Source: a virus (Duplodnaviria; Caudoviricetes). From it: a DNA stretch of 64,000 bases. The notes below the pieces were generated by a model. That model saw nothing but the letters and a program-made list of their open reading frames with translations. It did no database searches and was not told where the DNA came from. The DNA lies in the IMG/VR virus record IMGVR_UViG_3300025084_000012, positions 15,125 through 79,124 of that record; one strand, written 5' to 3'. Both the position numbers and the translations under genes were made by a program. Below, piece by piece: positions 47-22,637 of this stretch (position 1 is the first letter of the stretch; the number at the start of each line of letters is the position of its first letter).

Positions 47-226
47 ATGATTGGAAGTGTGTGGATTAACAAGCACATGAATAAACGTGCTCGCATTGTA
101 GCAGAGCCACTCGTTACTGTCTTTGAACTTGAGTATGAAGATGATACTATCGCAAACCAAAGATGGTCAGCAGGTGACTTACACAAGCATTGGCTTCGTG
201 CTGACATGGTTCTTGAGGAGGAATGA
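47..226 (+). CDS. small hypothetical protein (59 aa, not in ORF track)
   Basis: Translated by hand as MIGSVWINKH...DMVLEEE*. Its stop overlaps the ATG at 223 (ATGA coupling). Confidence 0.55.
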   Translation: MIGSVWINKHMNKRARIVAEPLVTVFELEYEDDTIANQRWSAGDLHKHWLRADMVLEEE

Positions 227-489
227 GTATGACTGAGAAAACTGTATGGCAATCGAGTAGCCTTGAGGCTAAATGGAAAGATGGCAGAGGTGATGTCAGG
301 CTGGCACAAGTTAGTTTCTATGGCAAGGATTGGATTGACCTACGCATACTTCGTGATGGTAAGCAACACACAAGACACGGAGTACGCTTGTCTATAGAAC
401 AGGCTACTGAGATGCTACCACGTCTCATAGAAGCAATCGAAAGTGCGAAGGCTAACGAAGAACAGAAGGAAAGAACCGACGACTCTTGA
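223..489 (+). CDS. PC4/YdbC-family ssDNA-binding protein
   Basis: VRLAQVSFYGKDWIDLRILRDGKQHTRHGVRLSIEQ matches the PC4 pattern V.V..F.GK..IDIR....G..T.KGISL..EQ. Confidence 0.75.
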   Translation: MSMTEKTVWQSSSLEAKWKDGRGDVRLAQVSFYGKDWIDLRILRDGKQHTRHGVRLSIEQATEMLPRLIEAIESAKANEEQKERTDDS

Positions 490-512
490 AGTTGATATAT
501 AAAGGAACAGTA
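489..512 (+). promoter_or_regulatory. conserved viral promoter motif, copy 1
   Basis: AAGTTGATATATAAAGGAACAGTA contains TATATAAA; ATG 524 lies 11 nt downstream. Confidence 0.85.
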
Positions 513-523
513 AAACACTCTTC

Positions 524-751
524 ATGGAAAGAGCAACATCAGTTAGCCATGTTGAGTACGAAGTCATTAGTTGGCTTCGTGACAACATCGACATCAGAGA
601 ATTAGAACAAGCGATGGTTAATGACGAAGTGACAAAGAAGCGATGGTCTACTGGTGTAGCCAATGTTTGTTCCCTATTGGACAACATGTGCAGTAGACGA
701 GTACACAAGTTACCAAAGACACACACAGAATACAAGGAGAAATCAAAATGA
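524..751 (+). CDS. hypothetical protein
   Basis: 75-aa ORF directly behind promoter copy 1. Confidence 0.7.
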   Translation: MERATSVSHVEYEVISWLRDNIDIRELEQAMVNDEVTKKRWSTGVANVCSLLDNMCSRRVHKLPKTHTEYKEKSK

Positions 752-882
752 AATGCGATATGTGTAGATATAATGGAATGGAATCTAAAGGACTTCGATG
801 TGGTAAGTACAATGTATGTAGCCCATGCATTGACAAGTCCATTGAGGCGAGAATGTTTTTGATAGGGAGAGATAAACAATGA
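748..882 (+). CDS. small Zn-finger protein (44 aa, not in ORF track)
   Basis: MKCDMC...VCSPC... has two CxxC pairs and ATGA overlaps on both sides. Confidence 0.65.
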   Translation: MKCDMCRYNGMESKGLRCGKYNVCSPCIDKSIEARMFLIGRDKQ

Positions 883-1424
883 ACATATTTGTATTAGATA
901 GAAACCCAATTACTGCGGCACGTATGCATTGCGACAAGCACGTTCCCAAGATGTGCGTAGAAGCGGCACAGATGATGGCATCAGCCCTTCACAGGCACGA
1001 TGTACCTCATGATTCAATGCCCCTTACCAAGAGTGGTACAATGTACAAAGGTGGCTACAAGCATCACCCATGTACAGTATGGGCAGGTGAAACTCGTACC
1101 AACTTCTTGTGGCTTGGAGTACATGCTGTTACATTGTGTAACGAGTACAGCCAACGCTTCGGCAAAGAACATGCCTGTAACCAACCCATCCTACGGATGA
1201 TGGAACTACATCATGTCATCCCTGATGACGGGCTAACACAGTTTGCATTGGCTATGCCTGATGAGTACAGACCTGAACCTGTCGATGGTGAGATTGTATA
1301 CCATGCTTATCCTAAGTTTGCTATCGAAGCATACCGTCGCTATTACCATTCCAAGCAGTTCGCCAAGTGGGAGAAGGGTACACCTGCTCCCGACTGGTGG
1401 CGAGGCGTGGAGGTGACGGCGTGA
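879..1424 (+). CDS. pyrimidine-dimer DNA glycosylase (DenV-like family)
   Basis: MNIFVLD.NP..AA..HCDKHV.KM..E.AQ and HHPCTVW..E...N..WL signatures. Confidence 0.75.
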   Translation: MNIFVLDRNPITAARMHCDKHVPKMCVEAAQMMASALHRHDVPHDSMPLTKSGTMYKGGYKHHPCTVWAGETRTNFLWLGVHAVTLCNEYSQRFGKEHACNQPILRMMELHHVIPDDGLTQFALAMPDEYRPEPVDGEIVYHAYPKFAIEAYRRYYHSKQFAKWEKGTPAPDWWRGVEVTA

Positions 1425-1425
1425 A
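1405..1425 (+). repeat. 21-nt direct repeat, copy 1 (GCGTGGAGGTGACGGCGTGAA)
   Basis: Identical to 2031..2051; contains the RBS, the upstream stop and the downstream GTG start. Confidence 0.9.
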
Positions 1426-2050
1426 ATCGAAGAAGGTACTGAATCTGTATGCAGGTATCGGAGGTAATCGAAGAGGATGGAGTGACGACTATGATGTTAC
1501 TGCTGTTGAATATGATGCCGAAATTGCTAAGGCTTATGCTGAAAATTTCCCTGATGACGAAGTGGTTGTTGGCGATGCTCACGAATACCTACTCGCCCAT
1601 TATCACGAGTTCGATTTCATTTGGGCTTCACCACCATGTCCGACGCATTCACAATACCGATTCAATATAGGTGTACGTGCGAAGGGCTACGCCCCAGTCG
1701 TTCCCGACATGACGAGCCTGTACGGACTCATCACATTCCTCAAGCACCACTACGAGGGCGCTTGGGCTGTCGAGAATGTCAGACCATACTATGAACCCCT
1801 GATTGAACCTACGGCTCGTGTTGGTCGTCATGAAGTGTGGGCTTCGTTCCCACTTAGCAACCTGAAAATAAAAAGTAATGGTATGAGGGAAAACAATAAG
1901 ATTACTCAAGCACAACAAGCGAATGGTTTTGATATTTCACATACTAAAATAAAAAATAAACGACAAGCGTTGAGAAACTGTACTCACGCCGAAGTAGGTT
2001 CTCACATCATTAAAGGATGGGAAGCCGATAGCGTGGAGGTGACGGCGTGA
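1421..2050 (+). CDS. short C5-cytosine DNA methyltransferase (209 aa)
   Basis: Motif I LYAGIGG, motif IV WASPPC, motif VI VENV. The GTG start at 1421 follows GGAGGTGA (the track start at 1367 is probably too early). Confidence 0.8.
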   Translation: MKSKKVLNLYAGIGGNRRGWSDDYDVTAVEYDAEIAKAYAENFPDDEVVVGDAHEYLLAHYHEFDFIWASPPCPTHSQYRFNIGVRAKGYAPVVPDMTSLYGLITFLKHHYEGAWAVENVRPYYEPLIEPTARVGRHEVWASFPLSNLKIKSNGMRENNKITQAQQANGFDISHTKIKNKRQALRNCTHAEVGSHIIKGWEADSVEVTA

Positions 2051-2051
2051 A
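2031..2051 (+). repeat. 21-nt direct repeat, copy 2
   Basis: Identical to 1405..1425. Confidence 0.9.
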
Positions 2052-3078
2052 GATTAGGAATGCATTAGGATTATTCGATGGTACATCCTGTGGCCGACTG
2101 GCTTTGAAACGAGCAGGTATCGCATTAGATAACTACTACTCGTCTGAGATAGACAAGTATGCTATTCAAATCGCTGATAAGAACTACCCTGATAACATAC
2201 GGTTAGGCGACGTTCTCAATTGGCGTGACTGGGATTTAGAAGACGTTGATTTAATCACTGCTGGCTCTCCGTGTCAGGGTTTCTCGGCGGCTGGTAAGAA
2301 ACTTAATTTTGAAGACCCTCGTAGTAAACTGTTCTTCGAGTTCGTGGATATTCTTAATCACTACAAGCCAAAGTATTTCTTACTTGAGAATGTAAAAATG
2401 AAAGGAGAGTGGCGAAACATCATCACCGAATACTTAGGTGTCGAACCCATTCTAATCAACTCCAACTTAGTGTCAGCACAAAACAGACCTCGTTACTACT
2501 GGACAAACATACCTAACATTCAGCAACCTGACGACAAACTAATTTTTCTTGAGGATGTTCTTGAGGATGATGTTGGTGAAGAGTATCACCTAACGACAAA
2601 ATGGAAAGCGTGGTGGAACAAGAACAAAGACTTTCAAATCAAAAAGAAATACTCTGACGTAAATCCTGACAAGGCAATTTGTATGACTGCTCGACAGTAC
2701 GCAAACTGGAATGGGACTTTCGTAACCGTCCCGTTTGCTATGACGGAAAGAAGGACTGAAGAATCTAAGAGAATCAGAAGAGAGTATCAGAAGAAACACG
2801 GAAGAGACTTCTCTCCAAGAAGAGGTAAGAAATTAGTACCAAGAAGCGACGGGAAGATGAATTGCTTAACAGCGACTTACTCTCTCAAAGAGCATACAGT
2901 CCTCGACAATCAAACTGTATACAGAAAACTAACTCCTATTGAGTGTGAAAGGCTACAGACTTTACCTGATGACTATACGCTTGGTGTTTCTAATTCACAA
3001 CGATACAAGATGTTAGGTAACGGTTGGACTGTTGATGTGATAGCCCATATCTTCAGACACATGGAGATGGAAGAATGA
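2047..3078 (+). CDS. C5-cytosine DNA methyltransferase
   Basis: LFDG motif I, GSPCQGFS motif IV, LENV VI, QNRPR VIII, RKLTPIECERLQ IX, RYKMLGNGW X. Confidence 0.93.
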   Translation: MKIRNALGLFDGTSCGRLALKRAGIALDNYYSSEIDKYAIQIADKNYPDNIRLGDVLNWRDWDLEDVDLITAGSPCQGFSAAGKKLNFEDPRSKLFFEFVDILNHYKPKYFLLENVKMKGEWRNIITEYLGVEPILINSNLVSAQNRPRYYWTNIPNIQQPDDKLIFLEDVLEDDVGEEYHLTTKWKAWWNKNKDFQIKKKYSDVNPDKAICMTARQYANWNGTFVTVPFAMTERRTEESKRIRREYQKKHGRDFSPRRGKKLVPRSDGKMNCLTATYSLKEHTVLDNQTVYRKLTPIECERLQTLPDDYTLGVSNSQRYKMLGNGWTVDVIAHIFRHMEMEE

Positions 3079-3383
3079 GTTACACACCAACGGTGTTGCA
3101 CACCAGCATAGATGGAATTGGTTACTTGTGCGGTGCAGAGCGAATAGACTCATGGCATGAAAGATGTATGAGTGATAGGTTCGCCAAGTCTCTACCAAAA
3201 TGCGAGGACTGTGAAGAAGTGAAGAACCAAAGGTTCGGTGTTGATACAAAGGTAGCACTGAAGAAAGAGATGAGTCGGCGTATGGCTGGTGGTGACCGTA
3301 TAGGTAAGTCACCTGACATGGAAAGACCAGCCCCTATACCGAACAGTCGCACAGTTGTCAGTGACTACAGGAGGGATGCTTGA
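3075..3383 (+). CDS. hypothetical Cys/His-containing protein
   Basis: 102-aa ORF coupled on both sides; CEDC motif. Confidence 0.6.
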   Translation: MSYTPTVLHTSIDGIGYLCGAERIDSWHERCMSDRFAKSLPKCEDCEEVKNQRFGVDTKVALKKEMSRRMAGGDRIGKSPDMERPAPIPNSRTVVSDYRRDA

Positions 3384-3889
3384 TGTCCTACAGTGTTGAG
3401 TGCATTAAGTGTAACCTTCCATTTACAAAGAGGTCGATGAAATCTAAGCAAAAGGTTTGTCACGATTGTCTTTACGATAACACATTCACAACCATACAGA
3501 ACGCTCGTTACAATTCTATAAATCAAGAGATGAGTAAGGAAGAGTTACTCGCTAAAATCAACGTCATGGATGAGAAGATGGACACAGTAGCACAAACAAT
3601 TGAGACGCTGGTTAAAGATTCAGTCAAGAAGGAAGTTGATGTCGCATCACTGGAACACGGTGACGCATTCATTGACTTAAAAGCCAGCATCGTTTCTATG
3701 CAAAAGGAGCACGAGGAGAAGATAATGACGCTACTCGCTACAGTGAACTCTCGTATGGTGTCTCTTGAGAAGAGAGTAACCGATAGAGTCACCCTAATCA
3801 GGCAGAAGATTAGAGAACTCAGACATGAGGCGAGGCAACGCAAATGGTCTATCACAGAAGAAGGATGGACTATGACAACTAAATTGTAA
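3380..3889 (+). CDS. Zn-ribbon plus coiled-coil protein
   Basis: N-terminal CIKC...CHDC followed by a heptad-rich helical region. Confidence 0.65.
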   Translation: MMSYSVECIKCNLPFTKRSMKSKQKVCHDCLYDNTFTTIQNARYNSINQEMSKEELLAKINVMDEKMDTVAQTIETLVKDSVKKEVDVASLEHGDAFIDLKASIVSMQKEHEEKIMTLLATVNSRMVSLEKRVTDRVTLIRQKIRELRHEARQRKWSITEEGWTMTTKL

Positions 3890-3911
3890 GTTGATATATA
3901 AAGCAACAGTA
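3888..3911 (+). promoter_or_regulatory. conserved viral promoter motif, copy 2
   Basis: AAGTTGATATATAAAGCAACAGTA, 1 mismatch to consensus, intergenic. Confidence 0.85.
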
Positions 3912-3930
3912 AGAATACAGAGTAAGAGGA

Positions 3931-4500: not shown

Positions 4501-4697
4501 AATACCCAACATTGGTTATTCAACTAACGAGTGACTCAGGTGTGCCTATTGACATGCCTAATGACTGGCTTGAAAGTGTCATGCAAATATCGAGTATGCT
4601 TCATAGCAAATACAGATGCGGCATTGATGTCTTGTATGGTGAGGCGACTAAAGAAGGATTCAACATCATAGAAAAAGAGGTGAACAAGAATGATTGA
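4497..4697 (+). CDS. hypothetical protein
   Basis: 66 aa, GTGA-coupled to the upstream ORF. Confidence 0.6.
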   Translation: MKYPTLVIQLTSDSGVPIDMPNDWLESVMQISSMLHSKYRCGIDVLYGEATKEGFNIIEKEVNKND

Positions 4698-4974
4698 CAC
4701 AGACAAATACGAAGGACACACAGAAGGAGAATGGTGGTATGTTGATTTCACTAACTGCCCTAACGGGTCTAAGGACTCATACATTATGAGCAATACTGGA
4801 AAGGTATTTCAGAATCTCACAGGTTCCTTGTTGCCTGACGAATTGCTCATAGCAGACGCACCACTACTGCTCGCAGAAGTCAAGCGGTTGCGACAAGTGG
4901 TTACTGACTTGTTGCTTGAGTTTAACATAGGTTCGTCGTCTTACTGGAGAAGAATAGAGGAGGATTTGAATTGA
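4690..4974 (+). CDS. MIDTDKYEGH paralog 1
   Basis: Shared N-terminal MIDTDKYEGH and IADAPLLL.E..RLR blocks. Confidence 0.8.
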   Translation: MIDTDKYEGHTEGEWWYVDFTNCPNGSKDSYIMSNTGKVFQNLTGSLLPDELLIADAPLLLAEVKRLRQVVTDLLLEFNIGSSSYWRRIEEDLN

Positions 4975-5285
4975 TTGACACAGACAAGTACGAAGGACAT
5001 ACGGAAAGACCGTGGGAGATTCATGGAGAGCGCATCTGTGCTCAAGACGCTTGCGAAGTAGGGAATGTAGGTGGTGAAATTGCGACTCTAAATCCTAAAA
5101 TTGACACTCGTTTTTGGTTGCCTAACTCTCAACTCATAGCAGACGCACCACTTCTCCTTGAAGAAATCAAGCGGTTGCGTGAAGGTATCAAGGAGTTGGC
5201 GGAAAGTTGGACTAACCGAAAAGTTGGAAGACCAAGTGACCTACTTGTACTTGCGGCAAATGAGTTGAAGAGGTTGATTGAATGA
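4971..5285 (+). CDS. MIDTDKYEGH paralog 2
   Basis: Same conserved blocks; TTG start. Confidence 0.8.
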   Translation: MIDTDKYEGHTERPWEIHGERICAQDACEVGNVGGEIATLNPKIDTRFWLPNSQLIADAPLLLEEIKRLREGIKELAESWTNRKVGRPSDLLVLAANELKRLIE

Positions 5286-5560
5286 TTGACACAGACAAAT
5301 ACGAAGGACATAGTGAAGGTGAATGGAAAGTAGGCGCACGAAAAGGTGCTATGACTGTGAGGGATTCTAACGGTGAAGAAATAGCGGCAACCAATTCTTA
5401 TTCAAACGCACGAATCATGGCCGACGCACCACTTCTCCTTGCAGAAGTCGAACGATTGCGTGGAGTCCTCTTGCGAATTATTGATACTGCTAAAGGAAAA
5501 CCATTCATAAGCGGACACATTAATTCAATTGTAGCAGAGGTTTTCAAGGAGTTGATTTGA
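5282..5560 (+). CDS. MIDTDKYEGH paralog 3
   Basis: Same conserved blocks; NARIMADAPLLL. Confidence 0.8.
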   Translation: MIDTDKYEGHSEGEWKVGARKGAMTVRDSNGEEIAATNSYSNARIMADAPLLLAEVERLRGVLLRIIDTAKGKPFISGHINSIVAEVFKELI

Positions 5561-5809
5561 ATGAACGACCACCAAGATAGTGAGAACTTCTCTTACGAGA
5601 GAACATGGGAAGAGATTGAGACTATGCTCAACGATGCTGAGCGAAAACAGAACAAGCATCTCTTGGCTCTTCACAATCTTGCACTCACGAAAGAAGAAAA
5701 GGTTCAGCACATGAGAGATTACAAAGGGCTACAGGGAGTCATCTATGGACTTCGCTGGGTGCTTGGAGACATGAAGATGTCAAGAAAGAAGGTGTTAGGA
5801 GATGAGTGA
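5561..5809 (+). CDS. hypothetical helical protein
   Basis: 82-aa ORF in a coupled gene string. Confidence 0.65.
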   Translation: MNDHQDSENFSYERTWEEIETMLNDAERKQNKHLLALHNLALTKEEKVQHMRDYKGLQGVIYGLRWVLGDMKMSRKKVLGDE

Positions 5810-6140
5810 TAAAGCAGAGATAGTTGCTCGTACCGTAGAGACGCACGCTGGTGTAGATAGAGGTATGCAACTGGCATTGGCTATGGGTTTGAAAGGAGGC
5901 GAGTACGCTTCCGCTAAGGCTCTGTCAATCAAGGTAGCAGGTGATGATAGATGGATGAATCAGAGAAGCCCACACGGGTTGATGGTTGATTGTCTCTATC
6001 TATGCGCTAAGCGTAAAGGTATCAAGACCAGCGCTGTTAAGGTTCGTAACCTGTCGTTTCAGATATTAGGTGTGGGTACACAACCAAGACCTAATGGTTG
6101 GCAAGGCGAGTTCACAGATTTAATCGAGGGGTTGCTATGA
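5802..6140 (+). CDS. single cyclin-fold TFB/TFIIB-like protein
   Basis: ALAMGL...AKAL...RSPHGL...LYLCA..KG aligns by eye with the TFB cyclin repeat (CSELGL...AIEI...KSPTGL...IYIAS..LG). Confidence 0.6.
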   Translation: MSDKAEIVARTVETHAGVDRGMQLALAMGLKGGEYASAKALSIKVAGDDRWMNQRSPHGLMVDCLYLCAKRKGIKTSAVKVRNLSFQILGVGTQPRPNGWQGEFTDLIEGLL

Positions 6141-7393
6141 CAAAGTTCGCATTACTCGCTGACATACATGAGCAACTACGCTTAGGTAAAGCACCAGTTA
6201 CTCAACTGGCTCGACTGACAACACTTGAGGACACACTGGCTCTTTATCGTCTGTTCTACATCGACCAATTACCGACTGACCCATTCAAACTCATCGCTTA
6301 TGAAGCAGCATTGTTTTATGATGTGGTCAAGGATATGTTACCTGAAGAAGAGACGTGGATGGCTCTTGCATCTGAGAGTGCAAACTCAGGCTCACGAGAT
6401 TTCGACCTCTCTTATGTTGAAGCGTTGCTTCAATCATCCAAGTCTTTCACAGAAGTGGCACACAAATTTAACGAGAAAGAAGCACGTCTACTTTGGCGAT
6501 GGTGCATTAAAGATTCACCAGTCATAACAAAGAGAGCATTCTTTGGAGCACTTGCTCGTATTCATGCAGTTCCGAATGAAGCCATGACACGCAACATGAC
6601 ATCGGAGACTCTCACCAAGTTGTTCAGAGACAAAGAGAGCCTTAGTGTGAATCTACGATGGTCTGAGTATGATTGGTTTCCCTCACCTATGCGATGGAAA
6701 GCATACACTTCACTCGCTCCTCCTGAAGAGAATCACTTGGCTGTAGTTGTTCCCAAAGGTGACATTATATATCTTCACAACCATGTCGTGCGAGACAGGA
6801 TGGGAAGGAAGATAGGTAGGCATGGCTACAGTGCCAACTATCTCTACGAAGCAGTGCGATGTCCCGATAGCGGTGTTGAAACAATCATAGACAGAGTGAA
6901 AATACGTTCACCCCTTGAGACTTTTGTAACTCGTGTGGGGGGTGAGCATGGGAGTGGCTACATGTCCACTGACAGCAACTGGGATGACATTGTTCGTGAA
7001 TTGCAGTCACCTGATGTAAGATGCATTCGACTCATCAAACCTAATCAAGAGTTCAAACCTGATGCTATTGGTGGCTATGTAATGCACGCTGACCGAACTA
7101 AGGTCTTCCTAAGAGTAGATTACAAAGTTAATGGTTTCGGAACACTACAGGCTCTCGATGGTATTGATGACTTTGTAGACATGACAGCAGCGTTTCCTCT
7201 TCCTGATGAGTTAAAGAATCCACTCGACATCGAGTGTGCTGTGGCTGAGATAGCAGCAGTGCGAGTCGGAGGAAGACATGGTTGGGAGATGGTTATACTA
7301 ACCGATTATACAGTCATTAAACTGAGGACTGACTTGGGTATCAAAGACGTGACTCAGTACGTTGAACTGGTGGCAAGGAGTGGTGTAGAATGA
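6137..7393 (+). CDS. degenerate ATP-dependent DNA ligase-like protein
   Basis: Ligase-like N-terminal helical domain, FPSPM in place of PML, PKGDII in place of KxDGxR, RLIKPNQEFKP in place of motif IV/V. Start ATG 6137. Confidence 0.5.
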   Translation: MTKFALLADIHEQLRLGKAPVTQLARLTTLEDTLALYRLFYIDQLPTDPFKLIAYEAALFYDVVKDMLPEEETWMALASESANSGSRDFDLSYVEALLQSSKSFTEVAHKFNEKEARLLWRWCIKDSPVITKRAFFGALARIHAVPNEAMTRNMTSETLTKLFRDKESLSVNLRWSEYDWFPSPMRWKAYTSLAPPEENHLAVVVPKGDIIYLHNHVVRDRMGRKIGRHGYSANYLYEAVRCPDSGVETIIDRVKIRSPLETFVTRVGGEHGSGYMSTDSNWDDIVRELQSPDVRCIRLIKPNQEFKPDAIGGYVMHADRTKVFLRVDYKVNGFGTLQALDGIDDFVDMTAAFPLPDELKNPLDIECAVAEIAAVRVGGRHGWEMVILTDYTVIKLRTDLGIKDVTQYVELVARSGVE

Positions 7394-8149: not shown

Positions 8150-8173
8150 AAGTTGATATATAAAGGAACAGTA
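8150..8173 (+). promoter_or_regulatory. conserved viral promoter motif, copy 3
   Basis: Exact AAGTTGATATATAAAGGAACAGTA; ATG 8185 lies 11 nt downstream. Confidence 0.85.
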
Positions 8174-8184
8174 GGATGATATTT

Positions 8185-9135
8185 ATGGAGAACAGCACAG
8201 AACCACAGACCTTGGAGGACATAGCAGGTCAGACTGCCTTTGTCTCCGACGCTATGGGTTGGCGGAATGGTGGTAAGTGGCCTCGTGCTGTTCTCCTCCA
8301 CGGTATGCAAGGCACTGGTAAGTCCACTGCGGCGAAGGTCATGCTCCGTGAGAAGATGGGTGACTACTTTGACCCCATGAACTACATCATTGTCAATGCC
8401 TCAGATGACAGAGGGCTTGACTACATTCGTAACCAACTCAAACAGATGAGTGCGGTCAAGGCTGTAGGCACTGACAGGAGAGGCATCATCGTAGACGAGG
8501 CTGACGGCCTCACCCCTGCTGCTCAAGATGCTCTAAGGGGCATCATGGAAGAGTATGCTGACAATGTTTTCTACATCTTTACATGCAACGAGATTAGCAA
8601 AATCAAACCTGCTATCCGAAGCAGGTGTCTTGTGTATGAGTTCAAGCCTATCAGTCCTGAAGATGGGGCTAAGAGGCTTGTTGATTTATTCAAAGGACAC
8701 TTATCCAACATGGGTGATGATACACTCAGCGCTTGGAGTAACACATTCATGCGACTCATGAAGTTCACTGGTGGTGATATGCGTATGGCTATCGCTATCA
8801 TGGCGAGTCAAGGTGACGCTCCCCTTACTTCTCTACAGAAGAGACTATCCGATGGGGGCAACCCATCACAGGCCGCACTTGCTGCTATCAGTGGTGACTA
8901 CGGCGACATGCGTAAGCAACTCTATACCATGTTTGACAGAGGGCTTTCACTTACCTTCGTCATGCGAACATTCCATGAGAACCTAACCGAGTTCTTTGAG
9001 ATGGATGAAGACAACACATGGACAGTCATGGGTGTGCTGGGAGAGATGATTCCCCACATGTATGAATGGCCTATCGGTTCATATTCCTTTGTTGATTGCC
9101 TTGTGGCACGACTACGAAAGGAGGTATTATCATGA
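8185..9135 (+). CDS. rfcS: replication factor C small subunit (clamp loader)
   Basis: Walker A GMQGTGKS, NASDDRG, Walker B IVDEAD, AQDALR and SRC motif. Confidence 0.93.
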   Translation: MENSTEPQTLEDIAGQTAFVSDAMGWRNGGKWPRAVLLHGMQGTGKSTAAKVMLREKMGDYFDPMNYIIVNASDDRGLDYIRNQLKQMSAVKAVGTDRRGIIVDEADGLTPAAQDALRGIMEEYADNVFYIFTCNEISKIKPAIRSRCLVYEFKPISPEDGAKRLVDLFKGHLSNMGDDTLSAWSNTFMRLMKFTGGDMRMAIAIMASQGDAPLTSLQKRLSDGGNPSQAALAAISGDYGDMRKQLYTMFDRGLSLTFVMRTFHENLTEFFEMDEDNTWTVMGVLGEMIPHMYEWPIGSYSFVDCLVARLRKEVLS

Positions 9136-12373: not shown

Positions 12374-14782
12374 ATGATTATCGACTGGTACTACCCTGCT
12401 GACTCCGACAACTTCGGACAGCCTAATCTCTACTTACGGACTCGTGACAAGGATGGTGTACTGCATGAAGAGCACATATGGCCTGAAGACAAGAAGTACG
12501 TAAAACCACATTGTTGGATTCCACTAAACACACCTGAGTGGAAACTTAATCGTATGCTCGCTCGATACCCCAGTGCTCGGATTCATCGGAACATTCGTGC
12601 TGCTGGTATTGACAAGAAGACATTGATGAAAGTTGAGGTAGACAGACCTACTGACTTGTGGGACATCAAAGACGAGATGCCTACTTATGAAGCAGACTTG
12701 AATTACCTTGACCAAGTGCTACTGAAACTCTATCCTGAGAAGTTACCTGAGTTCAAGCCACGAGTGTGGTATTTTGATTTGGAGTGGGATGTCAAGGATG
12801 ACTTCACATCCGTCATGGCTATCGTGGACAGTGACCTTGAGAAGCCTGTTGTATTTGCATGGGCTGATGAAGAAAAAACCAATTGTCCTTATCCAATACA
12901 CATCGAAAGCGCAAGATACAGAACAGTGCGTGATGAAGATTACATACTACAAATCCACCCCTCCGAAGCGGAGATGCATGAAGCCTTCATTGATTTCTTA
13001 CACAAGCGTGACCCTGACATTCTCGTAGCCCATGCTCTGATGTGGGCTGACTTACCGCACCTGATGCGTAGACTGAAAGACCCTGACCAACTTTCACCAC
13101 TCGGTCAAGTGATTCGACCATTCAAGGGTAGAGATGGTTACAAGGACACTCAACAACCCATCAAGGGTAGACTGTGCTGGGACTCAGCGGCTCACTGGAA
13201 GAGTGGGAGTGGCTTTGAATCGCTATGGCAAAAGTCAGGACGTGGACAACTACCTAACCGTAAGTTGAATACTATAGCGGAGTTGCTTGAACTCGGTAGT
13301 AAACTGACAGAAGAGATTGAGGGTATGACTGTTCACAATGGTTGGTATGAATACTGGAGTGAGTTCGTAGATTATTGTCTTCTCGATACCACGTTACTGC
13401 GTGACATTGACAAGAAACTCAACGCCATTGATTTCTTCGTTGCTACTCAGCAATTGTGTGGTGTCTCGTGGGCGAGCACACACAAAGTCACTCGATACTT
13501 TAGAGGGCTTGTTGGTAGAAGGACGGATAAGAAAGCCAAGAGTGCTATCAACAATCGACGTGAACAACTCACTGCCGCCCACATTCCTGACCCTATAGCG
13601 GGTCGCCATGAGGGTGTAGCCATTGTGGACTACGCTTCTCTCTATCCTAACATCATTCTCTCCGACAATCTATCCTACGAGACAAAGCGTGAGCAACCTA
13701 CAGAGACTACCAAGACGCTGGGCGATGGCTCACACTGGTGTCAGAAGAAGAAAGGTCTACTCCCTGCTATCGTAGAAGAGATGCTTGAATTGCGTGCTGA
13801 ATACAAGAGACTCATGCATGAGGCTACAGACCCTGATGAGAAACTCGGTTACGACATGATGCAAACAGCGGCGAAGGTTCTCGTTAATGCACTCTACGGT
13901 ATGACTGGGATGAAGTTCCTTCAAGGTATGTGGGTAGACAACGACATAGCAGCCGCTATTACCCACAGAGGGCGTGAGTGTATTCACCATCTACTGGCTG
14001 AGAGTGAGGAGCAAGGTTACAAATCACTCTATGGTCACACGGATTCGGCTTTTATCCAAGTACCCTTTGACGAAGCAATATCACTCGCTGAGCACTTGAC
14101 TGAGACTGCTAAGAACAAACTTGAGTTACCAACAATGGAAGTTGAACTTGAGGCTTACTTCGATTACTGGACTACTGCTCCAGTGAAGAACCGCTACTTT
14201 GGTATCAAGACGTGGCCTGAGAAAAGCAAGGGTGAGATGAAGATTGCTGGTTATGAAATCAAAGCCTCCAGTTCTTCACGTATAACTAAGCGCATTCAAA
14301 AGGTGGCTATGGAAATGATAGGCACTGGTGCTGATGAAACAGCCGTCACAGATGTACTGAGAGAGATAAGTCTCCAAGTCAAGAACGGTGAGATACCGAT
14401 TGAGGACGTGGCTTGCTCGTCTCGATTGACGATGGACTTTAGGGATTACAAGAGCCTACCCGCACCTGCAAAGGCCGCTATGTACTACAACGAACACGTT
14501 GCCACTAACGCCGAAGAGCGATGGAGTAAAGGCGACAGTGTATCATGGATTTATGTCAAGGGTTTCAATGATGATGTCCCTGACTACTACACACTCAAAG
14601 GAGAGCGAGCGAAGGTAAACTTTGTTGCTTTCCGTGATAAAGCAGAGTTGAAGAACTATTCTATAGACTGGGACAAAGTGCTCAGTGTTATGGTTAAATC
14701 TAAACTCATGCGAATCTATGAGAGCCTTGACTGGGCGCTTGATGCTGCTTCGGGAGTGACAATGCCAAAGTCATATTTTTGA
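12374..14782 (+). CDS. polB: family B DNA polymerase with 3'-5' exonuclease domain
   Basis: ExoI YFDLE, ExoIII YCLLD, motif A DYASLYP, motif B Q...K...NALYG, motif C YGHTDS, KNRY. Confidence 0.97.
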   Translation: MIIDWYYPADSDNFGQPNLYLRTRDKDGVLHEEHIWPEDKKYVKPHCWIPLNTPEWKLNRMLARYPSARIHRNIRAAGIDKKTLMKVEVDRPTDLWDIKDEMPTYEADLNYLDQVLLKLYPEKLPEFKPRVWYFDLEWDVKDDFTSVMAIVDSDLEKPVVFAWADEEKTNCPYPIHIESARYRTVRDEDYILQIHPSEAEMHEAFIDFLHKRDPDILVAHALMWADLPHLMRRLKDPDQLSPLGQVIRPFKGRDGYKDTQQPIKGRLCWDSAAHWKSGSGFESLWQKSGRGQLPNRKLNTIAELLELGSKLTEEIEGMTVHNGWYEYWSEFVDYCLLDTTLLRDIDKKLNAIDFFVATQQLCGVSWASTHKVTRYFRGLVGRRTDKKAKSAINNRREQLTAAHIPDPIAGRHEGVAIVDYASLYPNIILSDNLSYETKREQPTETTKTLGDGSHWCQKKKGLLPAIVEEMLELRAEYKRLMHEATDPDEKLGYDMMQTAAKVLVNALYGMTGMKFLQGMWVDNDIAAAITHRGRECIHHLLAESEEQGYKSLYGHTDSAFIQVPFDEAISLAEHLTETAKNKLELPTMEVELEAYFDYWTTAPVKNRYFGIKTWPEKSKGEMKIAGYEIKASSSSRITKRIQKVAMEMIGTGADETAVTDVLREISLQVKNGEIPIEDVACSSRLTMDFRDYKSLPAPAKAAMYYNEHVATNAEERWSKGDSVSWIYVKGFNDDVPDYYTLKGERAKVNFVAFRDKAELKNYSIDWDKVLSVMVKSKLMRIYESLDWALDAASGVTMPKSYF

Positions 14783-14791: not shown

Positions 14792-14935
14792 ATGAAAAAG
14801 ACAAGACAAACAACACTGGACGAATACGGACTGACAACTGATGGGCGAAGACAAACCAAACTCACTGAGTTTGGAATGACGTTTGAAGTTGATATAAAAA
14901 GGAACAGTAAAGATGAGGTTGGTGAAGAAGAGTGA
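14792..14935 (+). CDS. 47-aa tandem PIP-box microprotein (not in ORF track)
   Basis: MKKTRQTTLDEYGLTTDGRRQTKLTEFGMTF...; own GAGGTGA RBS; stop overlaps the next GTG. Confidence 0.75.
   Translation: MKKTRQTTLDEYGLTTDGRRQTKLTEFGMTFEVDIKRNSKDEVGEEE
14886..14909 (+). promoter_or_regulatory. conserved viral promoter motif, copy 4
   Basis: AAGTTGATATAAAAAGGAACAGTA, 1 mismatch, inside the microprotein ORF. Confidence 0.8.
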
Positions 14936-15297
14936 CAGAAGAAGAGACTTTCAAAATTAAGTGTGCTAAGATTGCAGGTAAGATTGTGAACCTACTTGCT
15001 GAGAAGAATGCTCAGTATGGTGACAGTGCCTTTGACCCTATCCGCTTCTTCAGCGACCTTCCTCCTGATGCTGGCTTAAGAGTTAGGATTGATGACAAAC
15101 TCAGTAGACTCATGCGTGGAAACGATACAATCGAGTCTGACGTTGATGTGATTGAAGACCTGATTGGTTACTTCATCCTCTTACGCCTGACGATGGATGA
15201 TGAGGAAACAGTTGAGGCATACAAGGACTCAGAACTTAACAAGTTGAAGCCACGTTATCGTTTTCCTCTGCCTAACAAATTTGGTAAGGAGTGGTGA
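14932..15297 (+). CDS. Nmad1/DUF1599-like nucleotide-modification-associated protein
   Basis: KNAQYGDS...RIDDKLSRL...EDLIGY pattern. Confidence 0.7.
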   Translation: MTEEETFKIKCAKIAGKIVNLLAEKNAQYGDSAFDPIRFFSDLPPDAGLRVRIDDKLSRLMRGNDTIESDVDVIEDLIGYFILLRLTMDDEETVEAYKDSELNKLKPRYRFPLPNKFGKEW

Positions 15298-16259: not shown

Positions 16260-16268
16260 GATGATAAT

Positions 16269-16568
16269 ATGGATAGAGAAGGACTGTTCGTTGCTTGTAG
16301 ACTCTTAGAGGCTGCACTGGGTAAGATATGGCCTTCCTACAATTTTAGAGTTGAGTCATCCCTTCTCTCAAAACGAATTAAAGTTCACACCACATCAAGG
16401 ATATTAATTGAGAATTATCATGAGGATATAGGTGACGTGGCAAGTTTACTCTTTGAAGTCATCATACATCCATCAAGGCTGAAGTTAGAGCACATCAACG
16501 ACACCTTAGACGATGTTATCACTAAAGTGTTAGAACGAGTCACACTCATAGAAAACGTAGAGGACTGA
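16269..16568 (+). CDS. hypothetical protein
   Basis: 99-aa ORF in the operon. Confidence 0.65.
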   Translation: MDREGLFVACRLLEAALGKIWPSYNFRVESSLLSKRIKVHTTSRILIENYHEDIGDVASLLFEVIIHPSRLKLEHINDTLDDVITKVLERVTLIENVED

Positions 16569-16572
16569 TACA

Positions 16573-17685
16573 ATGGGATTCATTTCGCTGGACTTCCCTC
16601 GTGAAGTGCTTGAGATAGCATCGAACGGGAAGCAGGGTGGTCGTTATTGTGTTAAGGACTGGGAAGAGTTAGAGCGATACTGGAAAGGCAAGAATGGTAG
16701 CGGTAACGTCTACTTCACAGCATACGGCTATCGTGCGACCAAGCCACCAAGAAACCACAGAGTAGACTACGACACACCTATCATCCGTCACTTCGTCATG
16801 GACTTCGATTGTAAGGACTTCAAGCAGAGAGGAGCAGATGTAGATTTTCCATTCATGCACGAACAGGTTAAAAGGCTACATCGTTTTTTGCTAAGCGAAG
16901 ACATTCGACACTTTGTATGGTTTAGTGGTGGTGGGTTCCACGTTTGGATTCCTCTACAAAACATACACACTCCTTCAGATGGTTACAGTGTAGCACGAGT
17001 CAAAGAGGGTGGTAGAAAACTGATTAGTCAGTGGCACAAGAAACTCTCTCTTTCTTGTAACGACCCTACTGTTGCTTTCGATACGTCAGGTATGATTCGC
17101 ATTCCGAACTCATACAACAGCAGAAGAGGATGTTGGAGTATACCAATGGACAGCGACTCGATACTCAACTTGACTTACGATGAGATTATGGAGAGAGCAC
17201 AAACACCAGTTAGTGGTTACATCGAGATTGGTAAAAAAGATATTAACATTACAGTGACAGACCGTAAAAGTCCATTCAAGAAAACGGTGGAGAAAGTAGA
17301 AGGTTTACCTGACATCACATTAGGTTCTACGATTGTCTTACCTTGTCTTGCTCAAGCCGCATTAGGTGAGGGTAACCCTACTCACAAAGCAAGATTCCAT
17401 CTTGTCACATACCTCGCAGCGAGGTTTCGCTGGTTCTACCCAGTGGCCGCTGTGAATGATGAAGACAAGGCTGAGCATGTAGAATTGATATGCCGTATCA
17501 TAGAGGAACAAGGATGGGTTGATTACAACCCTCGTATTACTCGTGAGCAGGTAGAGAACATCGTTTTCGGCGGTGCTGGTAACAGCGGTTACTCAGCCGC
17601 ATCGTGCGCTACACTTGAATACGATGGACTATGCAGCGGAAGATGTCGCTACTTCGACGGTAGCATAGGTGAACAACATGGGTAA
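16573..17685 (+). CDS. priS: archaeo-eukaryotic primase, PriS fused to PriL Fe-S domain
   Basis: DFD catalytic motif, FSGGGFHVW, RIPNSYN; C-terminal LPC...H..R..L...SC......C..C. Confidence 0.88.
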   Translation: MGFISLDFPREVLEIASNGKQGGRYCVKDWEELERYWKGKNGSGNVYFTAYGYRATKPPRNHRVDYDTPIIRHFVMDFDCKDFKQRGADVDFPFMHEQVKRLHRFLLSEDIRHFVWFSGGGFHVWIPLQNIHTPSDGYSVARVKEGGRKLISQWHKKLSLSCNDPTVAFDTSGMIRIPNSYNSRRGCWSIPMDSDSILNLTYDEIMERAQTPVSGYIEIGKKDINITVTDRKSPFKKTVEKVEGLPDITLGSTIVLPCLAQAALGEGNPTHKARFHLVTYLAARFRWFYPVAAVNDEDKAEHVELICRIIEEQGWVDYNPRITREQVENIVFGGAGNSGYSAASCATLEYDGLCSGRCRYFDGSIGEQHG

Positions 17686-17914
17686 GAAAAGATTGATTAA
17701 ATTAATTAAAACAGCATTGAGAGAAGAAGGCAACCTTTCCGTAGAAAGTATCATCACTGTGTTCCAAGACAGATGGCCTCGACAGACCCCATCGACCTCT
17801 GAAATGGCAAGCATCCTTACAAAGAACCCTGATTTTATTGTGATAGATACGTTCAAGAAACAATCAGCGATTAGCGGAACACACTCAGCATACATATGGG
17901 GATTGAATAAATGA
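17678..17914 (+). CDS. winged-helix DNA-binding protein
   Basis: LSVESI...PSTSEMASILTKNPDF followed by a beta-wing ending YIWGL; ATG 17678 follows GGTGA. Confidence 0.55.
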   Translation: MGKKRLIKLIKTALREEGNLSVESIITVFQDRWPRQTPSTSEMASILTKNPDFIVIDTFKKQSAISGTHSAYIWGLNK

Positions 17915-18618: not shown

Positions 18619-18620
18619 AG

Positions 18621-18653
18621 CAACATCGTGCTACATGTTTGTGAGTTTTTTTT
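18621..18653 (+). terminator. putative terminator (short hairpin plus T-tract)
   Basis: AACAT/ATGTT stem followed by a T-run, immediately before promoter copy 5. Confidence 0.45.
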
Positions 18654-18655
18654 GA

Positions 18656-18679
18656 AAGTTGATATATAAAGGAACAGTA
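18656..18679 (+). promoter_or_regulatory. conserved viral promoter motif, copy 5
   Basis: Exact consensus; ATG 18692 lies 12 nt downstream. Confidence 0.85.
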
Positions 18680-18691
18680 GGAAGTGAGATT

Positions 18692-20098: not shown

Positions 20099-20259
20099 AG
20101 TGTGTTATGTGTAATAGCGACACTAAGTTCTCAGATAACACCCCTACAGGGGTCAAATCCTTTTGTAGTGAGAAGTGTTGGGCTGAATATATCGGAATCG
20201 AAGTGAAGCCTGAAGGCTATTATGGAATGATTCAAAAGAAAGTAGGATGGTGGGCGTAA
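20095..20259 (+). CDS. TRASH/YHS-type Zn-finger microprotein (54 aa, not in ORF track)
   Basis: MKCVMC...FCSEKC; ATGA-coupled. Confidence 0.65.
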   Translation: MKCVMCNSDTKFSDNTPTGVKSFCSEKCWAEYIGIEVKPEGYYGMIQKKVGWWA

Positions 20260-20330
20260 TGGATGAGTCCGAATTGAAGATTTATATTGAAACAGAGGAG
20301 TACATCTACTGGGAATACTGGGAGGCATAA
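20259..20330 (+). CDS. possible 23-aa acidic/aromatic peptide
   Basis: MDESELKIYIETEEYIYWEYWEA*; TAATG-coupled and fills the gap exactly. Confidence 0.3.
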   Translation: MDESELKIYIETEEYIYWEYWEA

Positions 20331-20332
20331 AC

Positions 20333-20944
20333 ATGAGTGACATAATGGCATTAGATATTGAGACTGGTAACTACTCTTGGGAGATAGGTGGCTGGGATAA
20401 GCATAGCCTGTTTGAACCCACTGTAGTTTGCACATGGGATGGAACTGAAGGTCACGCCTTCACCAAAGAAGACATAGACATGGCAAGCGCTACTGTTCAT
20501 GACCTACATCCTCGCACGTTAGGTGACCACTTACAGAAACACATTGACGGTGGAGGTAAAATTCTCGGTCACAACATACGTGGATTTGATTTGCCAGTGC
20601 TAAGTGCTGCACTTGACTGCTGGACTGCTGGTGATTTGATGAGTAAAAGTGAAAGCATTATCGACACCAAGATGCTGGTTAATAAAGCAGCATTGGGTAT
20701 GGGTAAGGTTCACACTACACTCGATACTCTTGTTCGCTCTACTCTTGACTCATCAAAAAGTATGCAGAGTAGTGATGCGCCAGTAGCATGGCGTGAAGGA
20801 AAATTCCTTGAGGTAGCCGACTACTGCCTCAAAGACTGCCAGTTGACTTACGACCTCTACGTGTATGGTCGTGACAACGGTATAGTAAAGAGTCGGAGTA
20901 TGGACGACGGCTCTATAGTTGAAATTGAGGTAGATTGGAAATGA
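20333..20944 (+). CDS. DEDD 3'-5' exonuclease (RNase H-like)
   Basis: LDIET, GHNIRGFD, YCLKD. Confidence 0.88.
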   Translation: MSDIMALDIETGNYSWEIGGWDKHSLFEPTVVCTWDGTEGHAFTKEDIDMASATVHDLHPRTLGDHLQKHIDGGGKILGHNIRGFDLPVLSAALDCWTAGDLMSKSESIIDTKMLVNKAALGMGKVHTTLDTLVRSTLDSSKSMQSSDAPVAWREGKFLEVADYCLKDCQLTYDLYVYGRDNGIVKSRSMDDGSIVEIEVDWK

Positions 20945-22467
20945 CAGATAATAACACAACACAGAGGCTAAACATAGAAGCAGTCAAGCGTATCGCTGAG
21001 ACTGTAAGGACGACGCTTGGGCCATTAGGTATGGACAAGATGATGGTAGACGGTGGTGGTAATGTCATCGTGACAAACGATGGTGCTACTATCTTACGAG
21101 AAGTAGACACTGCTCACCCTGCTGCCAAGATGGTAGTAGAGGTATCGAAGATGCAAGAAGCAAACGCATACGACGGCACTACGAGTACAGTCGTTCTCGC
21201 AAGCCAATTGCTTGCTAACTCAGAGGGTCTATTCAGTAAAGGCTTGCATCCTAACGTAATTATCAAGGGCTACTCAACAGCACGAAACATGGCTGTTGAC
21301 TGCTTAGAAGGAATGCCTGACGCTGTAGGTAACCACGAAGATTATGATATGAACGTATATCTTAGAGCAATAGCAAGAACCGCTATCACTGGTAAGTCGC
21401 TTGAAGCATCCGAAGAGAAGGTCGCTAATCTGTGCGTCGAGACTATCAAGACAATAGGAAACGCTCGTGACGTGAAGACACTCGCTGTTCCCGGCGGCTC
21501 TCTCGCTGACTCGTGGCTTTACAACGGTGTAGTCCTTAACAAAGACTTCATCGGTGGTGGAGATGAGTTCCGTAACTGGGACAACGAAGATGGCGTAGAG
21601 ATACTGCTTCTCAATGGTGGCCTAACCGAAGGCAAAGAGAGTGCAAACGTATCTGTTCAGGTGTCCGATGCAAATTCCTACAGCCAAGTCCAAGCGATGG
21701 GTCGAGACAAACTGCTTGAGGCGGCTAAGGCCGTAGTGAGTAGTGGTGCTAATGTTGTGCTATGTCGTGACGCAGTACATGATACTGCGATTGCATATCT
21801 ACGCAAGCAAGGTATCTCTGTCGTGCAACGTGTGCCTGAGAGCACGATGCGTAGACTGTCAAACGAATTGATGAACACTCCAATCCACATGACACCTGAG
21901 CCATCATCAACAACAGGCATAGGTCACATTGACCGTGTTATTCACAACGACGTGCCGTATCTGTATGTTAATTCATTAGCGAAGGAGTGCATGACTACAC
22001 ACAGAGAATCCACACTGATACTGAAAGGTGCTACACAATCTACTCTCGATGAGATTCAACGAGGGTTTGACGACGCATTGGGTGTTGTGTCATTGGTCAA
22101 GAACGGTGACTCCATACGCTTTGGTGGTGGTTCTACTTACGTCGCTATCGCTGCTCACTTGCGTGCTAACGCTTCTGAGGTTGGTGGACGTGCTCAGATG
22201 GCGATTGAAGCGTTTGCTGATGCACTCGAAGCCATACCTGCTACTATCGCTGAGAACGCAGGTTATGACCCACTCGATACAGTCTTGGCTATGCGACACA
22301 AACTCCCTGAGTTATACGGCCCTGATGTAGAAAACGGAGGGGTTAAGTCCATGACGGGAGTATTTGAACCAACATCGCTTATTCGCAGTGGTATCAACGG
22401 AGCAACAGAAGTCTCATGTGCCATCCTACGCATTGATGATGTCATCGGGCGTAGAGGTGCTGAGTGA
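20941..22467 (+). CDS. ths: group II chaperonin (thermosome-like)
   Basis: TTLGP.GMDKM, VTNDGATIL, DGTTS, GGG, AIEAFADALE.IP..IAENAG. Confidence 0.96.
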   Translation: MTDNNTTQRLNIEAVKRIAETVRTTLGPLGMDKMMVDGGGNVIVTNDGATILREVDTAHPAAKMVVEVSKMQEANAYDGTTSTVVLASQLLANSEGLFSKGLHPNVIIKGYSTARNMAVDCLEGMPDAVGNHEDYDMNVYLRAIARTAITGKSLEASEEKVANLCVETIKTIGNARDVKTLAVPGGSLADSWLYNGVVLNKDFIGGGDEFRNWDNEDGVEILLLNGGLTEGKESANVSVQVSDANSYSQVQAMGRDKLLEAAKAVVSSGANVVLCRDAVHDTAIAYLRKQGISVVQRVPESTMRRLSNELMNTPIHMTPEPSSTTGIGHIDRVIHNDVPYLYVNSLAKECMTTHRESTLILKGATQSTLDEIQRGFDDALGVVSLVKNGDSIRFGGGSTYVAIAAHLRANASEVGGRAQMAIEAFADALEAIPATIAENAGYDPLDTVLAMRHKLPELYGPDVENGGVKSMTGVFEPTSLIRSGINGATEVSCAILRIDDVIGRRGAE

Positions 22468-22637
22468 TGGGAAGACTCCTTGACAAACTCACAGTGAAGT
22501 GTAGGGCTTGTACACACAAGCACATACCAAGAAGACTACAAGCACGTTATCTCGATGGTGACCGTAAGCGCATAAGCCTGTGGCAGTGCAAAGAATGCGA
22601 CCACATATGGCAAGACAGTGTGTTTAATCACCAGTAG
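22467..22637 (+). CDS. TFS/Rpb9-like C-terminal Zn ribbon (56 aa, not in ORF track)
   Basis: CRAC-x25-CKECDHIW with LQARYLDG in place of TFS LQTR.xDE; TGATG-coupled to ths. Confidence 0.6.
   Translation: MGRLLDKLTVKCRACTHKHIPRRLQARYLDGDRKRISLWQCKECDHIWQDSVFNHQ

Follow-up and report, generated by a model that had tools for sequence, protein, structure and literature searches.

Magroviruses are among the most abundant archaeal viruses of the surface ocean, and their hosts are uncultured. The present analysis concerns a repeated TATA-containing promoter cassette and five small proteins in one such virus, studied in a stretch of 64,000 nucleotides (the window). The window comprises positions 15125–79124, the right-hand 64 kb, of the linear IMG/VR record IMGVR_UViG_3300025084_000012 of 79,124 bp, for which CheckV estimates a completeness of 74%. 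A SNF2 helicase together with a thermosome marks group A of the magroviruses (Philosof et al., PMC5434244), and since this marker pair is present the record is classified as a group A magrovirus, a tailed virus. Its presumed hosts are archaea of the Poseidoniales (Marine Group II, MG-II); a thermosome profile search matched Poseidoniales genomes at 37–40% identity.

The + arm of the record is the replication and DNA-metabolism half of the virus. It encodes a family B DNA polymerase (PolB), an RFC-like ATPase, a PD-(D/E)XK nuclease, an ERCC4 nuclease, a primase-like protein, an exonuclease-like protein, two C5 methyltransferase genes, an endonuclease-V-like glycosylase, the SNF2 helicase and the thermosome-type chaperonin. 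The − arm is structural, with an SU10-type major capsid protein, a prohead protease, a tail tube protein and a C1q-tipped fibre. PolB has 80 relatives in IMG/VR, ranging in identity from 93% down to 39%, and its nearest cultured relatives, at ~23%, are those of haloarchaeal tailed viruses. Archaeal viruses are thought to depend on the RNA polymerase, TBP and TFB of the host (PMC5569661). An earlier reading of this DNA, made from the letters alone (the sequence-only reading), had remarked that the window holds no RNA polymerase gene, and a Pfam scan of the open reading frames (ORFs) of both arms and of the 15 kb upstream indeed gave no match to RNA polymerase, TBP or a full TFB. The five ORFs which that reading singled out, taken to encode TFB-like, PC4-like, LAGLIDADG, Zn-ribbon and winged helix-turn-helix (wHTH) proteins, are all open frames. 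Their positions and those of the other main features are collected in Table 1.

Table 1. Main features of the + arm (positions refer to the window; aa, amino acid residues; nt, nucleotides; AF2, AlphaFold2 model)
Feature	Position	Strand	Basis or remark
+ arm	1–22637, and 15 kb of record sequence upstream	+	Pfam scans of ORFs
PC4-like protein, 88 aa	223–489	+	Pfam and profile
Cassette copy	489–514	+	TATATAAAG from 496; next ORF ATG at 524, 28 nt on
Cassette copy	3888–3913	+	candidate in-frame ATGs 36 and 42 nt past the first T of TATA, behind GAGG
mini-TFB, 112 aa, single cyclin box, marginally of TFIIB/TFB type	5802–6140	+	profile and AF2 model
DNA-ligase-like protein (ATP-dependent)	6137–7393	+	AF2 and Foldseek; overlaps the mini-TFB gene, conserved downstream neighbour
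LAGLIDADG-like single domain, 146 aa	7704–8144	+	profile search
Cassette copy	8150–8175	+	precedes the RFC-like gene; second ATG at 8185, 28 nt past TATA
RFC-like clamp-loader ATPase	8176–9135	+	anchor of the conserved block
Family B DNA polymerase (PolB)	12374–14782	+	query for collecting relatives
Cassette copy	14886–14911	+	TATAAAAAG variant; just 3′ of the PolB gene
Putative wHTH protein, 78 aa	17678–17914	+	variable slot between the primase-like and ERCC4 genes
Cassette copy	18656–18681	+	run of eight T before it; ATG 29 nt past TATA
Thermosome-type chaperonin	20935–22467	+	group A magrovirus marker
Stand-alone C4 Zn ribbon, 56 aa, DUF7479-like	22467–22637	+	4-nt overlap with the thermosome stop; last gene of the + arm

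The repeated cassette of the replication arm

The five near-identical TATA-containing 24-nt motifs described by the sequence-only reading are all there: with up to three mismatches allowed, the window has exactly five matches, every one on the + strand, where shuffled sequences would give 0.00. Searching the whole record with the 13-nt core extends the series to 12 copies, all forward, with none in reverse and none in the reversed-pattern control. The consensus of the 12 record sites is AAGTTGATATATAAAG[C/G]AACAGTAAG. Each copy sits between + strand genes of the replication arm, and the operons that the copies head contain the SNF2 helicase, RFC and the PD-(D/E)XK nuclease, among other genes of replication and repair. 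The structural arm contains no copy of the cassette; there the genes start behind GGAG ribosome sites. Counted from the first T of its TATA box, the first in-frame start comes after 28–31 nt in six units and after 35–51 nt in the other six; several of the starts at 35–51 nt stand behind GAGG or GGTGA. Such spacing is as would be predicted for an archaeal TBP/TFB promoter giving leaderless or short-leader transcripts, and the cassette reads as a TATA-type archaeal promoter heading at least 12 transcription units. A GTTG...CAAC dyad, considered as a further feature of the motif, was discarded, as it is present only where C follows AAG and is lost in relatives reading CAGCA.

The cassette recurs in related viruses. 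Its core, TATAWAAAGSARYA, is present in 7–14 copies in each of four relatives that are 90–100% complete, on one strand only and within a single span of ~22–35 kb of the replication arm, and in four copies in a fifth relative that is 36% complete; the control counts are zero. In eight related loci (L001–L008) the copies occupy syntenic positions. In L011 and L071, whose polymerase is ~68% identical, the motif is TTGA[A/T]TCC-TATATAAAG-CA[A/G]CA, and the distance from TATATAAAG to the ATG is 28 nt, the same as in the studied virus, with the TTGA displaced by 3 nt. L191, from a more distant lineage, has four copies reading GTATATAAATCAGCAGTAA, in which the pattern TATATAAA-N-CA[AG]CAGTAA is retained. 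Finally, the complete record G006 (polymerase 44% identical) has a single copy, TTTATAAAGCAACTGT, in an intergenic gap that follows its TFB-like gene at a distance of ~1.9 kb and corresponds to the region of the 8150 copy ahead of RFC. Because all these lineages (L011/L071, L191 and G006) keep the TATA box and the segment from there to the start site, these are the constrained part of the cassette, and the position of the TFB recognition element (BRE) is not.

One copy of the cassette was also met in the contig L090 (NZQM01000043.1), which, like L091 (NZQM01000180.1), is binned in a 'Parvibaculum sp.' metagenome-assembled genome; the thermosome genes of the two contigs are 80% and 48% identical, respectively, to that of the studied virus, and both are probably misbinned magrovirus sequences.

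The sequence-only reading had allowed that the motif might simply be the consensus promoter of the host. The 18-nt cassette core was not found in five Poseidoniales genomes, in which the best site has two mismatches and the counts at up to three mismatches equal those of the control. An expectation-maximization script of our own, applied to 400 kb of one Poseidoniales genome, derived a different upstream motif, rGGaTT[C/G]AAg, which roughly two thirds of the 170 upstream regions contain, usually 25–45 nt before the start codons; the same kind of box lies upstream of the thermosome genes in many Poseidoniales genomes, and it may represent the consensus promoter of these archaea. Under the host matrix the viral sites score poorly, from −3.6 to 4.2 bits, the 99th percentile of all positions being 4.3, for a matrix that is low in information and comes from one genome, maybe not of the virus's true host lineage. 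By these comparisons the cassette is virus-specific in sequence, and its TATA box is far more canonical and AT-rich than what the presumed hosts use. That the TTGA with which the motif begins might be the host TT[C/G]AA box was considered and rejected for the main element because of the scores just given and because in L011 and L071 the TTGA shifts while the spacing from TATATAAAG to the ATG stays fixed.

The Poseidoniales upstream regions themselves (L170–L189 of genome G003, and L092–L169) carry the rGGaTT[C/G]AAg box and are without an AT-rich TATA box. The Poseidoniales TBPs (L200 and L201), 203 and 237 aa long, have an insertion between their two repeats; the L200 gene lies at 1483–2094, and a Poseidoniales TFB gene at 1474–2400 (minus strand) of L194.

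The sequence-only reading had suggested following the motif and each of its five genes through the magroviruses, and here only part of the proposed set held together. In the lineages with many copies of the cassette (group A and L191) the TFB-like, PC4-like and LAGLIDADG-like genes are all present. G006, with its one copy, has a TFB-like gene that is only distantly related (E 1.1e-7), with a PC4-like gene lying 139 nt upstream; a LAGLIDADG-like gene was not found in this record. In G007 (98% complete) and G008 (74% complete) the cassette, the TFB-like gene and the PC4-like gene are absent alike. Thus, only the TFB-like and PC4-like genes track the cassette across lineages, which is weak evidence since the pattern is nested within one clade; the ribbon, present in the cassette-free G008, the wHTH protein, whose slot is variable, and the LAGLIDADG-like protein do not follow it.

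The TFB-like protein and the other small proteins

The TFB-like protein, here called mini-TFB, was described by the sequence-only reading as a one-repeat TFB. A search of a library of 5.8 billion proteins returned 49 clusters of homologues, most of them of ~112 aa and several located on contigs of ~100 kb; none of the 49 has a Pfam domain. When a 39-sequence profile was compared with solved structures, the top eight matches were TFIIB/TFB core domains, at E 0.0066–0.051 (human TFIIB 0.0066–0.037, Pyrococcus TFB 0.051). Only the deeper profile gave this result, a shallow one of nine sequences finding nothing relevant among the solved structures. Among the PHROGs there was no match for the mini-TFB, nor for the PC4-like, LAGLIDADG-like or 'wHTH' proteins.

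The AF2 model of mini-TFB (pLDDT, the predicted local distance difference test, 91.1; pTM, the predicted template modelling score, 0.81) has six helices, corresponding to one repeat and an extra N-terminal helix. Foldseek placed only cyclin-fold proteins in its top rows, at E 0.2–1, with no match at E ≤ 0.001 in either PDB or BFVD. By VIA-align, Z is 10.1 (root-mean-square deviation 4.3, 96 residues aligned) against yeast TFIIB and likewise 10.1 against human TFIIB, both within pre-initiation complexes, and 8.8 (2.6, 90 aligned) against the second repeat of human TFIIB. A structure search independent of Foldseek had cyclin-fold proteins as its best-scoring chains and gave cyclin C at 9.8, yeast TFIIB and Pyrococcus woesei TFB both at 9.2, and the origin recognition protein Orc6 at 7.5 and 6.2. 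In view of the consistent match lists and of the VIA-align scores the cyclin box of the modelled protein is solid; its TFIIB subtype is marginal, the profile matches pointing to it. The one-repeat description thus stands as to the single cyclin-box fold and the leading TFIIB/TFB matches, and falls short of the threshold of the TFIIB family.

The five-helix cyclin box is what mini-TFB has in common with the core of archaeal TFB and eukaryotic TFIIB (PF00382; 1AIS, 1D3U, 1VOL), from which it differs in scoring below the Pfam cut-off, in having one repeat only and in its distance from both host TFB paralogues. Its motif RSP...CiYl.A aligns with the GRSP...AAaiYiA helix of the TFIIB repeats, and in the hhalign alignment with host TFB an invariant loop of the family, GVGTQPRPxxW, stands at the place of the BRE-reading helix. 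There is no N-terminal Zn ribbon, no B-reader or linker and no second repeat, and a single Cys is conserved; mini-TFB is unable to work as a complete TFB. Virus-encoded TFB homologues have been reported from a subset of rudiviruses such as SSRV1, from the Asgard virus JinchiV1 and from PBV300 (PMC13700489), and mini-TFB resembles them as a homologue of the basal factor TFB/TFIIB carried by an archaeal virus. Unlike them, it consists of just one cyclin repeat (112 aa), has none of the other domains and has an apparently altered BRE-reading helix; the SSRV1 TFB protein in BFVD has 270 aa. Recent capture of mini-TFB from the host was considered and rejected, the hhalign probability being no more than 10% with either host TFB paralogue.

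In this virus and in the divergent loci L190–L193 the gene order is TFB-like, a protein of ~420 aa, LAGLIDADG-like, RFC ... PolB, the first two genes overlapping. The ~420-aa protein is not detected by Pfam or PHROG models, and no member of its alignment (34 sequences from the exhaustive library search) matches Pfam. Its AF2 model (pLDDT 89.4) leads Foldseek to archaeal ATP-dependent DNA ligases, at E 1.7e-10. As for the LAGLIDADG-like protein, which the sequence-only reading had called degenerate, the top eight matches of its 10-sequence profile (A9) are LAGLIDADG endonucleases, at E 8e-4 to 0.053. The protein itself has no Pfam match, and two of the ten profile members match PF00961 at E 0.005. 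This similarity is weak but consistent, and at the end of the LAGLIDADG helix the protein has Q in the place of the catalytic acid, where relatives have E, A, S or G, in agreement with the earlier description. LAGLIDADG homologues were noted before in group A magroviruses and read as repair genes (PMC11706807).

The PC4-like protein scores 17.4 bits against Pfam PC4, below the cut-off of 25 (E = 0.0032). Its search returned 108 clusters of relatives; among the matches listed 15 carry PF02229. In the deep profile (A8) chains of PC4 and of its bacterial homologue BPSL1147 are in the top five, at E 0.06–0.16, and a shallow 5-sequence profile met nothing relevant among the solved structures. The PC4 label proposed earlier therefore has PC4 structures at the top of the deep profile on its side, and a Pfam score below the cut-off and marginal E-values on the other. 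The protein shares the sheet-then-helix pattern of PC4/Sub1 and of prokaryotic and phage PC4-like single-stranded DNA (ssDNA)-binding proteins (PF02229; 1PCF; BPSL1147, 5A4N), and it probably has an ssDNA-binding fold; at such marginal E-values both a transcription and a replication role are possible.

The Zn ribbon, which the sequence-only reading had compared with TFS, follows the thermosome gene with a 4-nt overlap in group A. Its spacing, CxxC-25-CxxC, fits the TFS/TFIIS ribbon and likewise many unrelated ribbons. Against the TFIIS ribbon (PF01096) it reaches 10.8 bits, the cut-off being 21. At E ≤ 0.01 DUF7479 is matched by 35 of 42 relatives and the TFIIS ribbon by three, and the comparison with solved RNA polymerase ribbons gave E 0.3–1 (RPA12 and the Thermococcus celer ribbon, 0.29–0.99). 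The tip position is DG here and DD, DE or NE in relatives, and there is no N-terminal domain. The relatives bear source annotations as different as 'RNAP subunit M/TFIIS' and ribosomal proteins L32 and L37ae, and in PHROGs three unannotated families were matched at E 0.018–0.094. The ribbon also occurs in G008 (L070), a record without the cassette. On these grounds the TFS label was dropped, and the protein is treated as a generic Zn ribbon, closest to DUF7479. TFS4 of the Sulfolobales is a TFS paralogue without an acidic tip, a host factor inhibiting RNA polymerase in virus infection. The magrovirus ribbon is unlike TFS4 in lying under the TFIIS-ribbon threshold, in being without an N-terminal domain and in having DUF7479 as its nearest family. 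ORF145/RIP of ATV is a viral inhibitor of RNA polymerase known from archaeal virus infection (PMC5123050, PMC8448823). TFS4 and ORF145/RIP are small proteins proposed to act on RNA polymerase, and the resemblance of the ribbon to them is a lead only.

The 78-aa protein has a single weak match, to DUF3860 (E = 0.005), and the comparison with solved structures gave no support for a wHTH. Homologues are present in L009, L012, L052, L061, L074 and L076. Elsewhere the slot (17669–17914) is filled by a Cys-rich protein (L001, L003, L011) or by other small proteins (L005, L007), or is empty. As L001 and L003, with an unrelated Cys-rich gene in this place, have the same motif, the wHTH protein is not supported as a partner of the cassette.

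How the cassette may be read

The explanation that we prefer, with confidence slightly better than even, is that the + arm forms a cassette regulon of at least 12 units in which mini-TFB acts as a modulator of the host TFB. At least 12 units of the + arm would each be headed by the cassette of ~26 bp, consisting of a TATA box (TATATAAA) and the proximal segment G-[C/G]-A-A-C-A-G-T-A-A. It would most likely be read by the RNA polymerase of the host, together with host TBP and TFB. Roughly half of the units would give leaderless or near-leaderless mRNAs, and the rest mRNAs with a short leader and a GAGG or GGTGA ribosome site. An additional sequence-specific factor would time the + arm as a single regulon; such a factor is proposed because the TATA box and the proximal segment are conserved and the BRE position is not, and because the cassette is missing from the host genomes and from the structural arm. 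Mini-TFB may act at TBP–promoter complexes as a modulator or competitor of host TFB. It would not be a self-sufficient initiation factor, since it is without the Zn ribbon and the B-reader that recruit RNA polymerase. The complex predicted for mini-TFB (alignment A3) with a Poseidoniales TBP scored 0.02 against a mark of 0.32, in a run without controls, and counts neither for nor against such a role. No result ties the Zn ribbon, the 'wHTH' protein or the LAGLIDADG-like protein to the cassette.

Several results weigh against this explanation. As a single sequence mini-TFB scores 12.0 bits against Pfam TFIIB, the cut-off being 23.6 (E = 0.22), and hhalign comparison with the two host TFBs gave probabilities of 0.8% and 10%. 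Structurally, cyclin C is as good a match as TFIIB, which leaves the TFIIB assignment to weak sequence signals. The co-variation with the cassette is that of nested lineages and comes from three outgroup records, one of them 74% complete. Finally, the place of the mini-TFB gene in the conserved ligase-like/LAGLIDADG-like/RFC block fits a role in replication.

This last point is the main argument for the first rival explanation, as the ligase-like neighbour and the conserved gene order put mini-TFB in a replication and repair block. The cassette would then be a plain strong promoter of host type, kept identical by selection for strength, and the small proteins would serve replication and repair: the PC4-like protein by binding ssDNA, the cyclin-fold protein as an Orc6-like factor or an accessory of the ligase or clamp loader, the LAGLIDADG-like protein as a domesticated remnant of a homing endonuclease, and the ribbon as a thermosome-linked or generic small protein. 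We regard this as a serious rival, if somewhat unlikely. Much agrees with it: divergent relatives keep the order of the TFB-like, ligase-like, LAGLIDADG-like and RFC ... PolB genes, the replisome of magroviruses is known to be near-complete and to include an ssb (PMC5434244), a repair function has been ascribed to the LAGLIDADG homologues of group A (PMC11706807), and Orc6, a replication protein of the TFIIB fold, is among the structural matches of mini-TFB (Z 7.5 and 6.2). The eukaryotic Orc6, a part of the origin recognition complex, would offer a cyclin/TFIIB-like fold in a replication context that matches the mini-TFB neighbourhood, but unlike TFIIB and cyclin C, which score 9–10, it has a lower Z and no match by sequence profile; the profile of the cyclin-fold protein selects TFIIB/TFB, and not Orc6 or cyclins. 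Moreover, the proximal segment is conserved across lineages while the BRE drifts, which goes beyond what strength alone would predict.

A more active part for mini-TFB, possibly joined by the PC4-like protein, is unlikely. In such a scheme it would be a promoter-specificity or anti-TFB factor by which the polymerase of the host is turned to the replication regulon of the virus, either bound on TBP at the TATA box and reading G[C/G]AACAGTA downstream or displacing host TFB at host promoters. The full takeover proposed by the sequence-only reading, in which all five proteins jointly redirect host RNA polymerase to a private promoter and shut off the host, is a shade less probable still. The virus-specific cassette would suit it, as would the supported TFIIB-like and PC4-like folds, whose genes are adjacent in G006, and RNA polymerase inhibitors are known in archaeal virus infection, such as the viral ORF145/RIP (PMC5123050, PMC8448823). 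The host factor TFS4 is another. Three of the five components do not fit: the ribbon is below every TFS threshold and present in the cassette-free G008, close relatives that share the cassette have unrelated genes in the wHTH slot, and the LAGLIDADG-like gene was not found in G006. The least probable reading, to which we give very little credence, is that the cassette is also a boundary for module exchange, with identical 26-bp unit starts letting related viruses swap whole transcription units through homologous recombination, a role that has been suggested in phages for promoter or boundary sequences that recur. It would account for the gene content between cassette copies, which varies among close relatives while the flanking units stay, and for the methyltransferase genes (1367–3078) and the paralogue array (4690–5560), which are missing or rare in relatives. 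However, variable genes also lie away from the cassette copies, as in the slot 17669–17914, and module exchange is compatible with a promoter function.

The preferred explanation, the cassette regulon with mini-TFB as a modulator, has parallels among archaeal viruses. Near-identical promoter-plus-flank sequences have been described for the early genes of rudiviruses (SIRV2) and other crenarchaeal viruses, and for the T6 promoters of SSV (PMC11065993), where the copies are presumed to time a single class of genes in concert; the GTC element is another conserved regulatory sequence of archaeal viruses (PMC5569661). The likeness to those early sequences lies in the many near-identical copies per genome of a TATA core with a virus-specific flank. 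Unlike them (PMC11065993), the magrovirus cassette heads multi-gene replication and repair operons in a tailed euryarchaeal virus, and not single small anti-defence genes. What was found is a real promoter regulon, a new case of a known kind, and, beside it, a truncated form, with one repeat only, of the TFB homologues that viruses encode. In the magrovirus literature as searched, promoters, TFIIB and PC4 are unmentioned and gene expression is not addressed.

A regulon of 12 units with a sharply defined promoter predicts operon boundaries, leaderless starts and the binding site of a timing factor. If the single TFIIB repeat, with its 49 clusters, acts in transcription, it would be a simple natural probe of the assembly of TBP, TFB and promoter. 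If mini-TFB acts instead with the ligase-like protein and RFC, it would be the archaeal-virus counterpart of Orc6 as a replication protein of the TFIIB fold. Should it prove a specificity or anti-TFB factor, it would provide the first demonstration that a truncated basal factor made by a virus can reprogram transcription initiation in archaea.

Further genes of the record

Within the + arm, the two adjacent ORFs of C5 cytosine methyltransferases at 1367–3078 (+ strand) are of 227 and 343 aa, the shorter one matching the N-terminal part of the family only; both are missing from most relatives. The array at 4690–5560 (+) consists of three tandem paralogous small genes that have two conserved blocks in common (repeat families D1 and D4), and homologues are present in few relatives only (L008, L016, L017).

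In the structural arm a single ORF of 6059 aa (27254–45433, −), very large for a genome of ~100 kb, has as its sole Pfam signal a weak Laminin_G_3 match near the N-terminus. Inside the structural module a protein of 173 aa (48612–49133, −) contains a clear SAP domain (E 4.8e-11); SAP is a DNA-binding motif that is mostly eukaryotic. It is also worth mentioning that the 47-aa ORF directly 3′ of PolB (14792–14935, +) is kept in nine related loci at 40–100% identity and is probably a real small gene.

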